From contig NZ_QWVS01000013.1 of assembly GCF_003570725.1 (NCBI RefSeq), forward strand, positions 1 to 40,000: a stretch of DNA of 40,000 bases, read 5' to 3'. This DNA is from Peribacillus asahii. Lineage in GTDB: Bacteria; Bacillota; Bacilli; Bacillales; DSM-1321. This document shows positions 3,254 through 18,962 of the stretch, piece after piece (position 1 is the first letter of the stretch; each line of letters opens with the position of its first letter). A program made the position numbers and the translations under genes. Below the pieces are notes generated by a model. The model did no database searches and was not told where the DNA came from. It saw only the letters and a program-made list of their open reading frames with translations.

Positions 3254-4138
3254 TTAATGTTTTACAACTGTAGTAGTTGCCTTTGAACTAATATTCCCCG
3301 CCTTATCCTTTGCAGTAATAGAAAGTATAGTTCCCTTTCTTTGTGCTTTTATCTTAACAGAGTAATTTCCGTTCGAACTAGCCTTAGCAGACCCAAGTTT
3401 CTTACTTCCTGCCTTTACGGTCACGGTTGAATTAGCTTCTGCCTTTCCTTTAACTACTTTATCGTTATCATCTACCCTTTTAACAGTTGGTTTAGATGGC
3501 TTAACATTGTCTATAAACATAGCTCCGATTGCATATAAGTCCTCTTCTGTATTATCATCATAATACTCGTTATCTAGATCTAAAACACCCACATAGTATG
3601 TGCCTGCCTTAGCTTGATAGCCTTGTACTTGAACACCATTCTCATACTCATAGCCTAAATATTTTAACTTACTATTTTCAACATAATCTTTTTGTACAGC
3701 ATTAAATAGGAGATCAATGGAGTATGAATTAGTTTCTCCACCTACTAATAAAACTCCATTCGTAGGTACTACTACTTTATAGAAATCTACATCGTACAAA
3801 GGAAGTAATTGACCAACCATCAGTTTTTCATATGATAATTTATTTGCTGAATTAAAATCGTCATTATACTCTTCTTCAATAGTGTAATCATCACTGGAAG
3901 CACGACTCACAGTACCCATTTTATTAGAGCTTTTTGCAGAGCCTTTTATTTCTACTTGTAACTGATTTAATACAGCCGAATTCACTAAACCTTCTGGAAG
4001 TGGTTTTTCCACTTGGCGTTCAATAGCTTTCCTTGCCAACTCGAACTCAGTTCCTTCTGCCTTAACAGTGCCTACCGATAATGATGAAACAGCTAATACA
4101 CCTACAGCCACTAATGATAAAATACCTCTATTGCGCAT
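3254..4138 (-). CDS. Secreted protein with PPC-like (pre-peptidase C-terminal) domain and C-terminal bacterial Ig-like domain
   Basis: Signal peptide MRNRGILSLVAVGVLAVSSLSVGTVKA. PPC-like pattern NDDFNSAN...DVDFYKV...AGTYYVGV. C-terminal Ig-like repeat KPSKPTV..VKGKAEANSTVTVK..ITAKDKAGN. Start placed at the second ATG (4138), because GAGGGGGAAG overlaps the first ATG at 4153. Confidence 0.7.
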   Translation of the reverse strand: MRNRGILSLVAVGVLAVSSLSVGTVKAEGTEFELARKAIERQVEKPLPEGLVNSAVLNQLQVEIKGSAKSSNKMGTVSRASSDDYTIEEEYNDDFNSANKLSYEKLMVGQLLPLYDVDFYKVVVPTNGVLLVGGETNSYSIDLLFNAVQKDYVENSKLKYLGYEYENGVQVQGYQAKAGTYYVGVLDLDNEYYDDNTEEDLYAIGAMFIDNVKPSKPTVKRVDDNDKVVKGKAEANSTVTVKAGSKKLGSAKASSNGNYSVKIKAQRKGTILSITAKDKAGNISSKATTTVVKH

Positions 4139-4441
4139 ATTCTTCCCCCTCATTTGTTATGACGAACTATATACTATATTTATACTAATACATAAGAACT
4201 ATTTTTACCATTTTTATCCATACAAAGACTTAAAATCCCATCATCTAAGCCTAAGCATCTTCCTTCTCACCTCTTCTATAAGATTTAGCAGTCTCTTACT
4301 CAAGCAGCTATAAACCTAGGAAGTATCGCTGCATTTATTCACAAATCACCCCTAATATAATTCAAGGAAGGCTAATTCAAAAAATCTGTTACTACACTAT
4401 TAGAAGCTAACTAGAACATGTTGAAACCCTTTTAAGACAAC

Positions 4442-4471: not shown

Positions 4472-4732
4472 CTCGTGCTACCATATTACTTCTTTTTAAT
4501 TTTATATTCTCCTCCAATGGTATATAGTACAATTTTACCACAACACCAATATAAGGATGTGCTAATTCCCCCTAATGTAACTACTTAGTCACTGAATATT
4601 AATTTTCTAGGATGAAACATCGATTCATATCGAACCATGCTGGAGAACTACATCTGATGTGATCCATTCAATAAATGCCAAATATTAACAATATGTTTAT
4701 TCCCCCCTCCACTCAACCTGCTTTCCATCCAT

Positions 4733-4877: not shown

Positions 4878-5165
4878 TTATTCATCTTTACCCGCTTCAA
4901 TCATTAAGAAGATTGCTGATATAATATGCATAATCATTCCCACAAAGGGAATCCAAGCAACACATGATGTCACAATTCCAAGAATATGTCCTGTTTTCTT
5001 TCTATTTTCCTTTGACGATATGATAAGTGATACAATGTGTAGAGCTAACATGACTAAAAGTGGAGTCCAATATAAACCAACTACAATTGATCCACCGAGT
5101 AAAGGAATGCCAAGTAACGCTTCCAATCCACCTGATACCCATTTTAATAATCTAGAAGCTCCCAC
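4878..5165 (-). CDS. Small integral membrane protein (about 3 TM)
   Basis: 95-aa ORF with GTG start and SD AGAGGATGA upstream. Three hydrophobic segments. Own terminator. Confidence 0.6.
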   Translation of the reverse strand: MGASRLLKWVSGGLEALLGIPLLGGSIVVGLYWTPLLVMLALHIVSLIISSKENRKKTGHILGIVTSCVAWIPFVGMIMHIISAIFLMIEAGKDE

Positions 5166-5344
5166 AATTATTCATCCTCTCTTTTTATAATATTTATTTT
5201 ATTCTATCCTTTCTAAATATAATCTCTAATATCTCTTTCGCTTTTTAACTTCATCTTAACTTAACCTTCTGTCATACCAATACTAATTCTTACTCATCAA
5301 TATTTTATCTTAATTAACTAACGTATCTTCTTTTTCTCCGATAA

Positions 5345-7412: not shown

Positions 7413-7817
7413 TCATTGACCAAATAATCCATCGAGGTATTCCTTTTCCTCTGGACTATTCCATTTATAAGGGTATTCACTCTTCTTAAAAAATTTGTGA
7501 CCCCAATATGAGTCTTCATTTAGCAAATAAGGTGTTTCACCATACTGTCCTCTTGTGATTCTATTCCAGCTGCGGTCAACATTATAAATAGGGTCTACTC
7601 TCTGTATTAATGTATATTCAAGTAAACGATGCTCGTCCGTTGGATAGATAGAGAAACTATGAACAAGTGGATTAAGGTATTCATAATGGTGTGAAAAGCG
7701 TTTTCCAAACTCGGAAGCATATCCAACATAAAGTGGTTTATTTTCTTTGTTCCACAGTATATAAACTCCACCATATTTAGAGATTGTATTAAATCGATAA
7801 AAGTCTGTTATCTTCAT
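7413..7817 (-). CDS. GIY-YIG nuclease-domain protein
   Basis: 134 aa. GVY-x10-YVG motif (GVYILWNKENKPLYVGYA), followed by the conserved Arg (GKRFSHH), Glu (LLEYTL) and YN positions. Confidence 0.65.
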   Translation of the reverse strand: MKITDFYRFNTISKYGGVYILWNKENKPLYVGYASEFGKRFSHHYEYLNPLVHSFSIYPTDEHRLLEYTLIQRVDPIYNVDRSWNRITRGQYGETPYLLNEDSYWGHKFFKKSEYPYKWNSPEEKEYLDGLFGQ

Positions 7818-16249: not shown

Positions 16250-16498
16250 TTAATTAAATTCCCCTGCATGATATTTATTCAATAAGCGCTCTTGAACATA
16301 TTGCCTGCATTCGGGAGATAATAAAGACCTTTCAGGATGAATGATATCTCCAAAAGGTCTATCATCCAAAAATTTAACTTCTCCTTCAAATTCTCTCTCT
16401 AAAATGGCATCATATCCCTTTATTTTCACAAAAGTAGTGTTAAATCCCGTTGTGACAAAATCTACTATATACAAAACATGCTGATGCTTTTCAGACAT
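16250..16498 (-). CDS. Hypothetical protein (82 aa)
   Basis: ORF with a strong SD GGAGGAGGGA 6 nt before ATG 16498. The ORF-track start at 16537 lacks an SD. No family recognised. Confidence 0.55.
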   Translation of the reverse strand: MSEKHQHVLYIVDFVTTGFNTTFVKIKGYDAILEREFEGEVKFLDDRPFGDIIHPERSLLSPECRQYVQERLLNKYHAGEFN

Positions 16499-16732
16499 TG
16501 TGTGTCCCTCCTCCATATAATCCATAATTACATCCAAATCTATTGAAAAGCATATGTCAATAGATTCTCTAAAAGATAAAAAAACCGCTAGCGTTTAAAA
16601 CTTCAACAGTTCGAATAATATAGGCTTCTATGTAGAAATACATCGATAACCCCCATTAACATAACACGAATATTTGCAAACATATAATGGGTAATGAAAA
16701 TTATCATGATGTGATACAAACTAAAAAAGTAT

Positions 16733-16761
16733 AAAAAAAGACACCTCATTTAGGTGTTTTT
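16733..16761. terminator. Bidirectional terminator
   Basis: ACACCT-cattt-AGGTGT flanked by A7 and T4. On the minus strand it follows the 40-aa ORF. Confidence 0.7.
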
Positions 16762-16799
16762 CGTCATTGAATCTAATTATTGACAGACTTCTAAGCTTC

Positions 16800-16922
16800 T
16801 TATAAATCTGTTGTTTGCTCAAGTAGTTGATCAATATCTACTCTTTCTCGATTTAAAAAACAAGTCTCACCGACTGCATTACCTGTATCTTCCAATAATT
16901 TATCAATGTCTATTTGTTTCAT
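16800..16922 (-). CDS. 40-aa acidic peptide with an internal repeat
   Basis: MKQIDIDKLLEDTGNAVGETCFLNRERVDIDQLLEQTTDL. SD AAGGAG 9 nt upstream and a terminator downstream. The repeat is (I/V)DID(K/Q)LLE(D/Q)T. Below the ORF-track cutoff. Confidence 0.5.
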   Translation of the reverse strand: MKQIDIDKLLEDTGNAVGETCFLNRERVDIDQLLEQTTDL

Positions 16923-16950
16923 AAAAAAGAACTCCTTGAGGATATTTCCT

Positions 16951-17066
16951 AAAAAAAGACGGCCAGTACTAAAAAGAAACTGACCGTTTATGAAAAAAAA
17001 GAAAGCAATTAAAGTAATAACATTATTACTATACTTAGTATAAATTTTTTGTCGATTCTTGTCGAC
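16951..17066 (-). ncRNA. Module A: candidate Spo0A-controlled small RNA / attenuator leader
   Basis: Minus strand has TCGACA (17065-17060), N17, TATACT (17042-17037). Then an ~80-nt transcript with a 5' hairpin AGTAATAA/TTATTACT and a U/C-rich tract. Then a terminator ACGGTCAGT/ACTGGCCGT plus T7 (16951-16987). Plus-strand TGTCGAT-tct-TGTCGAC gives tandem 0A-like boxes. Paralog of 18814-18962. Confidence 0.45.
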
Positions 17067-17409
17067 AAGTAAATTGCGTCATAATATCTATAATTTCACA
17101 ATACTTAAAAGACACATGTAAGTCTCAGTATAAAAGTTCGCCTCTTTCTTAGCTAATCCTAATATTCGCCCTGTGCTTTCTCTCTCATTTTATGAAGCCG
17201 AGCAACTAATCCCCAAATTAGCCCGTTGTCAACGAGTATTATTTAACAAATCCACTTTCACGAAATCTGTCTTATTCGCCACCCTCTCTTATCAGCGACA
17301 ATCATATGTTTGATTTTCTGCTCATGCTCTTTTACCTAGTAGGCAAAACAAAAGAGCGAGCATTTAATACATTAAATGTTCACTCTTTTTATCCCTCAAA
17401 ACGCCCATT

Positions 17410-17811
17410 TTACTGTTGATGGCTATTTTGGTATGCCGTTGCAATAGCTTGCGCCTGTTGAAATTCTTGCTGTGCCTGTTGAACATCTTGTTGTTCTTTT
17501 TTAAGTTGTTGCTGTGCTTGCTGTAAATGCTGATTTTCAGTTTGTACCAATTGCTGTGCTTGAAGTAATTGCTGACTTTCTAGTTGTAACTTTTGATAGG
17601 CCTTTTGGACATCTTGCTGCAATTGTTCCAAGTGTTGTTGTTCCTGAAGAGTAGAAGGTTGAATACTTTGTAATTGTTGATGCGCTTGTTGGACAGCTTG
17701 TTGTGCTTGTTGCATTTGCTGTTCGCTTGTACTAGATTGCGCTTGTTTCACAGCTTGCTGAACAGATTGAGCCACTTCTGGCAATAACAACTGTTGATTT
17801 AGTTGTGTCAT
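17410..17811 (-). CDS. Glutamine-rich coiled-coil protein (possible spore-associated structural protein)
   Basis: 133 aa, of which I count 53 Gln (about 40%), in QQAQQ-type repeats. SD GTGGAGG upstream. An imperfect long hairpin plus T-run follows at about 17352-17395. Confidence 0.6.
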   Translation of the reverse strand: MTQLNQQLLLPEVAQSVQQAVKQAQSSTSEQQMQQAQQAVQQAHQQLQSIQPSTLQEQQHLEQLQQDVQKAYQKLQLESQQLLQAQQLVQTENQHLQQAQQQLKKEQQDVQQAQQEFQQAQAIATAYQNSHQQ

Positions 17812-18264: not shown

Positions 18265-18619
18265 ACAATCACTCCTTATTTGTTTTAAGGAGGTACTTAA
18301 ATGGGTTAATTTATTCTATGTTCCATATAGGTTAATGACACAATTTATTTTTCTTCCGCTCCCACAAGCATAATTCCGAAGGCGAATGAGTTAAAATTAT
18401 TATGTTACTTCTTATAAAAAACTAAAATCCCCTCTCCTATTATGGAGAAGGGAGCGCATCCGTCGCTAGAAAGAAGCTTCACTATTATAACAACTTGAAC
18501 AGTTTTTATACAATTATTTAGAACAGCATGTTCCAAGTCTTGATGACCTAACACTGGATGGGTAAGATTAGCAACAACAATCCAACCTCATCATATCCAC
18601 GCTTACTTGATATTCCCCC

Positions 18620-18748
18620 TCAATCCGCAGCCATTTCCGTTATAAAGTCAAATGCATTTACAATGAATAAGCACGTTAATAAGGCGGACCAACCACCGAC
18701 TAGCTATCCAATAAAACGACCAATTGTAACTTTTAAAAAAGTCTCCAT
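18620..18748 (-). pseudogene. Small membrane-peptide ORF interrupted by an in-frame TAG
   Basis: METFLKVTIGRFIG-TAG-LVGGWSALLTCLFIVNAFDFITEMAAD. SD AGGTG 5 nt upstream. TAG at 18704-18706. Lies 66 nt downstream of the module B terminator. Confidence 0.35.
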
Positions 18749-18813
18749 TCGCACACCTGCTTTACATAAAAATAGTCCCGATTGGTTTGGGGCAACTCAG
18801 GTCATAATGTAGT

Positions 18814-18962
18814 AAAAAAGACAGCCAGTTTTAAAGGGAACTGACTGTCTCAATGAGTAAAAAGAAAACAATCATCGCAACACGATTGCCTTCTATATAC
18901 ATTATAAAACTTTTGTCGAAATATGTCGATATAAACCGCATAAATTAGATGTTTTGTCGAAT
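18814..18962 (-). ncRNA. Module B: candidate Spo0A-controlled small RNA / attenuator leader (paralog of module A)
   Basis: Minus strand has TCGACA (18930-18925), N17, TATAAT (18907-18902). Then an ~82-nt transcript with a 5' hairpin and a U/C-rich tract. Then a terminator ACAGTCAGT/ACTGGCTGT plus T6 (18814-18851). Plus-strand TGTCGAA-ata-TGTCGAT (18915-18931), plus a third perfect TGTCGAA at 18956-18962. Confidence 0.45.

Follow-up and report, generated by a model that had tools for sequence, protein, structure and literature searches.

The abrB promoter of Bacillus subtilis is repressed by Spo0A and has tandem 0A boxes. Footprinted tandem Spo0A sites have a spacer of 3 base pairs (bp), and Spo0A bound over part of the core promoter represses the A2c promoter of phages Nf and phi29 (PMC2731898). 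Here we consider a locus of Peribacillus asahii that resembles these promoters. It lies in the first 40,000 nucleotides (nt) of contig NZ_QWVS01000013.1, and we call this whole stretch the window. On the minus strand at 16951-17066, which we call module A, two 0A-like boxes lie over the promoter of a predicted small RNA of about 80 nt, and a gene for a peptide of 40 amino acids (aa) follows the RNA terminator. As at A2c there are two TGTCGAA-like boxes with a 3-bp spacer, and the region that Spo0A would bind includes the core promoter (PMC2731898). In contrast to A2c and abrB, the -35 hexamer at this locus is itself part of the boxes, which also take up the promoter spacer. The product is a small RNA rather than a protein operon, and the system is known here from its sequence.

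Small RNAs of a similar build have been described. SpoX and SpoY tune the initiation of sporulation in C. difficile (PMC10267692). Like SR1, RoxS/RsaE and FsrA, they share with the RNA considered here a promoter of their own under a global regulator (a predicted one in our case), a 5' hairpin, a single-stranded seed (here putative), an intrinsic terminator and a length of about 80-100 nt. However, there is no sequence or Rfam relationship between any of them and our RNA. The seed here is U-rich with a single C and CAU rather than of the C-rich or UCCC type, and our RNA is limited to Peribacillus-like Bacillaceae, unlike the others. At the dual-function loci SR1/SR1P, SR7/SR7P and RNAIII/hld, a single transcription unit gives rise to a peptide of about 40 aa as well as to a regulatory RNA (PMC8501984, PMC7834092). 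The open reading frame (ORF) here is not inside the RNA as in the SR1/SR1P type. It starts 28 nt after the U-run of the RNA terminator, so it needs read-through, and five lineages have the RNA alone, which the dual-function RNAs do not parallel. The late unit of phage lambda (PR'-6S RNA-tR') combines a strong promoter, a short terminated RNA, lysis genes downstream and a regulator site between -35 and -10. Our RNA is not in phage collections, its downstream genes are not a late operon, and it is the consensus of the host's Spo0A that its boxes match. The loci examined showed no Q-like gene. The RNA and peptide locus is a fresh example of a familiar type of regulator, not a new principle.

The small RNA gene and its relatives

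We argue from comparative sequence evidence that the promoter, RNA and terminator are a real, conserved and uncatalogued small-RNA gene of about 80-85 nt in Peribacillus-like Bacillaceae. The parts of module A are read on the minus strand of 16700-17300. The -35 hexamer TCGACA (17065-17060), which is box 1 on the opposite strand, stands 17 nt before the -10 hexamer TATACT (17042-17037). Every copy has TATAAT, TATACT or TATATT at this place. In a consensus scan of the 5-kb interval from lexA to glnA, this promoter and its twin at 18929-18901 come out among the best. They match 10-11 of 12 consensus positions with a 17-bp spacer, and we predict that the module A promoter is a near-consensus sigma-A promoter. 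About 3 nt 5' of box 1 is a conserved AATTTAC (17069-17075, minus strand) that keeps the same register in most family copies. It could be an UP element or a third, degenerate phased box.

The predicted small RNA A is about 80 nt long (16951-17030, minus strand), with +1 placed at about 17030. The 81-nt sequence folds at -17.5 kcal/mol (z = -5.2 versus shuffles) and scores 84 bits with the covariance model. Folding gives a 5' hairpin AGUAAUA-AUGU-UAUUACU (17013-17030, minus strand), whose 5' arm can also pair with AUUGCU in the tract that follows. This tract (DNA UUGCUUUCUUUUUUUUCAU / TTGCTTTCTTTTTTTT, RNA form UUGCUUUCUUUUUUUU) runs into CAT (CAU in the RNA). Its single-stranded part AAUUGCUUUCUUUUUUUUCAU (16990-17010, minus strand) holds the near-invariant CUUUUUnn(U/C)CAU, which lies in invariant alignment columns and has an unpaired probability of 0.96 in copy A. 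We take it to be a putative seed. The intrinsic terminator (16951-16987, minus strand) is seen both in the sequence and by folding. Its 9-bp stem pairs 16987-16979 with 16967-16959 (arms ACGGTCAGT/ACTGGCCGT) and is followed by C and U7 (16957-16951), so that the RNA ends at 16951. The Shine-Dalgarno sequence (SD) AAGGAG of the peptide gene (16937-16932, minus strand) is 13 nt beyond the U-run, and the same tight junction of terminator and SD is found in loci L309, L385 and L310/L163/L040. Thus a promoter of its own and an intrinsic terminator delimit a short non-coding transcript, as is required of a base-pairing small RNA. Reading the copies reveals no conserved sense ORF inside the RNA, since start codons and frames vary among them. 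Antisense ORFs over the RNA gene ('MKKKKAI...', 5 to 31 aa) have no SD and were judged non-coding.

The window has a second copy, module B, at 18814-18930 on the minus strand. It is 72-74% identical to module A and has the same order of parts. The tandem boxes TGTCGAA (18914-18920) and TGTCGAT (18924-18930) on the plus strand again form the -35 and lie in the spacer. The -10 is TATAAT (18901-18906, minus strand), and the promoter has 11 of 12 consensus matches. A heptamer scan adds a third box upstream, the consensus TGTCGAA (18955-18961, plus strand). Small RNA B (18815-18894, minus strand) is recognised by the covariance model and has a fold z of -6.6. Its terminator stem is at 18851-18818, and the consensus scan finds this terminator too. 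There is no peptide gene 3' of module B; a decayed holin-like frame is there instead. The orthologue of module B in L163 (9833-9963, minus strand), which is from a sister strain or species, keeps the RNA body and terminator and has lost both boxes and the -10, and another P. asahii strain (L310) has no module B at all. The second copy looks dispensable or decaying.

The family set has 16 distinct homologues from about 9 Bacillaceae lineages, which form a 16-sequence alignment. Among complete genomes, P. asahii assemblies such as GCA_044763825.1, Peribacillus sp. B-H-3 (NZ_CP183879) and P. psychrosaccharolyticus have the family. A scan for the promoter pattern gave a clear RNA homologue behind the promoter in seven Bacillaceae loci. 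Further copies came from nhmmer and a covariance model and were not selected via the promoter. These are a second copy in L053, two in L163, one in L310 and one 5' of every member of the peptide family (L385-L389). As a control, 240 loci listed from a loose RNA-body pattern in metagenome and viral collections had no homologue except in L163. A stricter RNA-body pattern had 0 matches in viral contigs. No homologue was found by BLAST in 50,697 phage records or in a plasmid collection, nor by pattern in IMG/VR contigs. The modules have no Rfam match at gathering thresholds or at E<=10 in the window and ten related loci. The B. subtilis small RNA S612 was considered and is unrelated; it is DegU-linked and belongs to the ymzD locus according to the literature.

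The terminator is 99.3% paired across the alignment, with compensatory changes in 7 of its 9 pairs. Its covariation score is reached by 0 of 500 shuffles, and controls made by sliding the structure drop to 31-61% paired. Its pairing probability is 0.92-1.0 in all 16 copies, and there is no competing antiterminator fold. The 5' arm AGRRGYAAU has two possible partners, the proximal AUURC or the tract start AUUGYUUUCU. Both helices are 82-85% paired with one covarying pair each, and these data favour neither. CUUUUUnn(U/C)CAU is invariant or nearly so and has an unpaired probability of 0.56-1.0 across copies.

All the sequence elements listed in a sequence-only reading of module A are present, and its interpretation is borne out in part. 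This reading had placed TCGACA-N17-TATACT on the minus strand, and this promoter is there. So are the pyrimidine tract, the 9-bp terminator with T7 and the short gap to AAGGAG and the 40-aa ORF, which we measure as 13 nt. The 5' hairpin exists too, but it has 7 bp and a 4-nt loop rather than the 8 bp and 2-nt loop that were written. The second copy that it pointed out is real (18814-18930) and has the third box besides. It recognised no named RNA family, which agrees with the empty Rfam scan. The search it proposed for homologous copies returned the 16 of our set, and the check for covariation it recommended gave the compensatory terminator pairs. The idea of a conserved promoter-RNA-terminator gene with a second copy thus has comparative support.

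The tandem boxes and Spo0A

Box 1 of module A is TGTCGAC (17060-17066, plus strand), the complement of the -35 hexamer. Box 2 is TGTCGAT (17050-17056, plus strand), 3 bp from box 1 and within the spacer at about -26 to -20; it is kept in most copies. Both match TGTCGAA at 6 of 7 positions, and the three boxes of module B match at 7, 6 and 7. In both modules the tandem boxes are head-to-tail with a 3-bp spacer and 10-bp phasing. Counted one by one, 0A-like heptamers are no commoner in the window than expected (109 found, 112 expected). The composite TCGACA-N4-TCGACA-N7-TATAMT is a different matter, with 2 in the window against 0.01 expected from shuffles. Since single heptamers are not enriched, the signal is not box density but the phased tandem arrangement fixed relative to the -10.

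Scanning a genome collection for the promoter pattern gave 56 loci, 50 of them in Bacillota. The pattern precedes many unrelated genes across Clostridia and Bacilli and is also on three viral contigs. The pattern does not constrain the base before the second TCGACA, which is T in 42 of 56 unique promoters (59 matches in genome and viral loci). This T completes TTCGACA, the complement of TGTCGAA. All 15 promoter-bearing copies of the RNA have TCGACA and never TTGACA as their -35, and 6 of these were found without the promoter pattern. Box 1 is present in 15 of 16 copies and box 2 in 13 of 16. We argue that the boxes appear to behave like 0A boxes of Spo0A, judging by the consensus match, the phasing, the T before box 2, the near-restriction to Bacillota and the retention of TCGACA. 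The tandem Spo0A-like boxes of the sequence-only reading gain comparative support from the 10-bp phasing, the preference for T, the near-exclusive occurrence in Bacillota and the kept TCGACA.

If Spo0A does act here, its control is probably repression and not induction at the onset of sporulation. We predict repression because the boxes cover about -36 to -20 of a promoter that is already good and has a 17-bp spacer. A Spo0A~P dimer on the tandem boxes would occlude RNA polymerase, as at A2c, where the protected region takes in part of the core promoter. The RNA would be made in growing cells, where Spo0A is off, and shut off as Spo0A~P rises.

The same design is found elsewhere. TTCGACA-N3-TTCGACA-N7-TATAAT recurs before protein genes on three viral contigs (L010-L012) and in Clostridia loci among L013-L068, and this recurrence fits a general Spo0A shut-off design. 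Other short RNAs made of a hairpin and a terminator stand behind the same tandem-box promoter in L028 (about 7470-7580, minus strand), L033 (about 4146-4225, plus strand), L047 (about 3506-3565, plus strand) and L034 (about 5116-5180, plus strand). Three of the four have a UUUUGG(G)UUGG motif and one has UCUCCC, and none is in Rfam. They suggest a wider set of small RNAs with Spo0A boxes.

The micropeptide and the explanations compared

The peptide gene of module A (MKQIDIDKLLEDT...VDIDQLLEQTTDL, 16922-16800, minus strand, ATG at 16922) encodes an acidic peptide of 40 aa that is annotated as a hypothetical protein in P. asahii. A terminator scan finds a terminator-like hairpin and T-run that close the gene (16741-16757, minus strand). 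The family has nine sequences of 36-40 aa with invariant IDIDKLL..T and DIDQLL motifs. The ratio of nonsynonymous to synonymous substitution rates (dN/dS) is 0.33-0.46, so the ORF is under purifying selection. The peptide has no match in Pfam, PHROGs, NCBIfam, PADLOC or a PDB profile search, and an exhaustive HMMER search also gave no family. It is acidic and hydrophilic with no membrane helix. Its AlphaFold model has two helices only, at a predicted local distance difference test (pLDDT) score of 69.

The RNA is on the same strand upstream of the peptide gene in 8 of 8 peptide lineages, at a distance of 1-410 nt. In P. asahii, L309 and L385 terminator and SD are 1-13 nt apart, which leaves no space for a separate promoter. 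The U-tract is shortened in two of these three, in keeping with expression by read-through. In the other peptide lineages about 125-410 nt separate the end of the RNA from the start of the peptide. About half of the lineages have the peptide gene directly 3' of the RNA. In five lineages (winB, L019, L026/L032/L065, L046 and L053_2) the RNA stands without the peptide and is followed by unrelated genes, which suggests that it is more than a leader. Where RNA and gene abut, read-through likely feeds the peptide gene, as far as their arrangement can tell. In P. asahii read-through of the terminator would be the only obvious source of messenger RNA (mRNA) for the peptide, and RNA and peptide would form one Spo0A-gated unit. 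Of the two options that the sequence-only reading had offered, a small RNA whose terminator leaks into a peptide gene fits, with the RNA upstream in all eight lineages and within 1-13 nt in three. There is no support for an attenuator or riboswitch-like leader, given that no antiterminator pairing exists in the 16 copies, that Rfam has no match and that five lineages do without the peptide.

What might the RNA do? The reverse complement of the tract is AUG-A..-AAA-AAG-AAA-(R)CA-AU., a start codon and then lysine codons, which suggests that the tract pairs with a translation initiation region. The short RNA would act in trans by pairing CUUUUUnn(U/C)CAU with a start region AUG-A..-AAA-AAG-AAA. 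The candidate target start region can be written AUG-A..-AAAAAGAAA(R)CAA. The best explanation of the whole would then be a stand-alone small RNA transcribed by sigma-A, repressed by Spo0A~P, acting in trans and read through into the peptide gene where the two abut. Taken together we rate this combination as slightly better than an even chance.

Several points weigh against this explanation. Box 2 is degenerate in L387 and L388, and the module B orthologue of L163 has neither box. The conservation of box 1 is partly confounded with its role as the -35. The 5' half of the tract is predicted to pair with the 5' arm in most copies other than A, so its conservation may be partly structural. The U7 terminator in the window looks strong and read-through may be small. 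The lineages with gaps of 125-410 nt could have separate peptide promoters. Duplex scans of the 40-kb window and 11 loci of 2-20 kb brought up nothing but the self-antisense site. The anti-seed is also a generic start of lysine-rich genes. An SD with the anti-seed at variable spacing has 71 viral matches, while at a fixed spacing there are 0 matches in viral contigs.

One can imagine a scenario where the promoter exists for the peptide gene, or for lysis and cell-wall genes further downstream, with the terminator as a regulated or leaky gate and the short RNA as a functionless by-product like the lambda 6S RNA from PR'-tR'. In a variant, termination could be modulated through a protein bound to the U/C-rich tract. 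All eight peptide lineages have the RNA upstream and in the same orientation, three of these have no space for another promoter, and among 7 peptide-less copies 6 point the same way as the next gene. The modules adjoin holin, endolysin and SH3 genes, and the duplex scans of the window and 11 loci gave no trans target. However, the five peptide-less lineages keep promoter, tract and terminator before unrelated genes, namely pepF, an AtuA-like gene, a Yip1 gene or a convergent gene. There is no antiterminator alternative, the terminator pairing probability being at least 0.92 everywhere, and no match among Rfam leaders and riboswitches. The tract is more strictly conserved than a spacer would need. 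We consider a cis-acting leader possible but unlikely. Turning the role of Spo0A around, Spo0A~P could activate RNA and peptide at the onset of sporulation, as it does at sigma-A promoters of the spoIIG and spoIIE type with a 0A box over the -35. A 0A box at the -35 does occur in Spo0A-activated sigma-A promoters, it coincides with the -35 hexamer here, and the modules have sporulation-related neighbours (Spo0E-like, YjcZ and SirA). Yet Spo0A-activated promoters have over-long spacers of 21-22 bp, and their boxes reach beyond the -35 on its upstream side. The promoter here has an optimal spacer of 17 bp and hexamers that match at 10-11 of 12 positions, and a protein bound to box 2, which lies within the spacer, should collide with polymerase. 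Activation is therefore an unlikely scenario to us.

It is worth considering that Spo0A may not be involved at all. Direct repeats phased about one helical turn are typical sites of the OmpR family, so another regulator of phased repeats (of the WalR/YycF, PhoP or OmpR type), or a phage Q-like antiterminator between -35 and -10, could use the promoter. WalR regulons share the neighbourhood rich in cell-wall hydrolases, and a short terminated RNA before lysis genes recalls the late units of lambda. But WalR (TGTWAH-N5-TGTWAH) and PhoP (TT(A/T/C)ACA repeats) have 11-bp phasing and differ from our boxes at 2 positions per half-site, while our boxes match TGTCGAA at 6-7 of 7 with a 3-bp spacer. 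The promoter pattern before unrelated genes across Clostridia and Bacilli fits a regulator common to endospore formers, and the RNA is not found in phage, plasmid or viral-contig collections. A regulator other than Spo0A is thus very improbable in our opinion. Prophage debris beside lysis genes that holds both a small RNA and a small ORF also calls to mind type I toxin-antitoxin pairs, which are typical of Bacillus prophage remnants; the ORF would then be the toxin and the RNA the antitoxin. Such a toxin does not resemble this acidic, hydrophilic and helical peptide. RNA and ORF are in tandem on the same strand and not overlapping antisense, and pairing of the tract to the translation initiation region of the peptide is no better than for shuffles in 6 modules. 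We give a toxin-antitoxin pair almost no chance, and we reject it on the grounds of the non-membrane peptide and the tract pairing that does not exceed shuffles.

The genomic setting and what it may mean

The lexA-glnA interval of the window holds both modules, small genes and prophage debris. Its genes include an SPP1-type holin, a YjcZ sporulation protein and a Spo0E-like gene, and across loci the sporulation-related neighbours of the modules are Spo0E-like, YjcZ and SirA. An ORF of 82/95 aa without family assignment (16250-16537, minus strand) has a homologue, 65% identical, between the tail and tape-measure genes of the phage-like contig L382. We argue that the interval contains prophage debris because that homologue sits in a phage tail module. 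Homologues of the 82-aa ORF were also tried as a route to further modules, and no small RNA is near them. Directly after module B is a decayed frame with two in-frame stops (about 18600-18760, minus strand). After stop repair it has a weak Phage_holin_4_1 match (E = 1.3e-3, below the Pfam cut-off), and it is probably a decayed holin gene. Between the modules is a glutamine-rich, low-complexity ORF of 133 aa (17410-17811, minus strand) that is kept in sister strains and has no family assignment. Contigs identical to the P. asahii locus turn up in several metagenomes.

Two observations from other loci should be mentioned. The two RNA copies of L053 have a c-di-GMP-I riboswitch between them (80 bits; 4564-4653, minus strand), 5' of a 123-aa ORF. 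The Amidase_3 gene of L385 (5687-7500) is called in two pieces and is interrupted by an opposite-strand HNH_3/NUMOD1 endonuclease ORF, perhaps an insertion similar to an intron.

In several family loci the modules repeatedly have holin, endolysin, amidase or SH3 cell-wall genes as neighbours. This debris of prophage lysis and the cell-wall hydrolase genes around the modules hint at a role in autolysis or cell-wall control. No pairing of the small RNA with mRNAs of these neighbouring lysis and cell-wall genes came out of the duplex scans, which covered the window and 11 loci. One can go further and imagine a Spo0A-gated cell-wall switch at entry into sporulation. The U-rich tract with CAU would be an anti-start-codon seed for AUG-AAA-AAG-AAA mRNAs, which encode the lysine-rich n-regions of exported and cell-wall proteins, and the acidic IDIDKLL/IDIDQLL peptide, made from the same transcript, would act on the neighbouring domesticated lysis enzymes. 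We regard this as a long shot. If it were true, Spo0A~P would use this RNA family to tune how strongly a whole class of secreted or autolytic proteins is translated.

In Bacillaceae few small RNAs are known to be under the direct control of Spo0A, and the post-transcriptional side of entry into sporulation is poorly mapped. The family offers a compact testable case in which the promoter is made of 0A boxes. It gives Rfam an uncatalogued RNA family and adds a new family of micropeptides. The promoter design with tandem 0A boxes recurs at other small terminated RNAs in Bacillaceae and at many genes in Clostridia and their phages. It could predict genes repressed by Spo0A across the endospore formers. 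If the link to lysis and the cell wall is functional, the locus would also show how prophage debris comes under developmental control.

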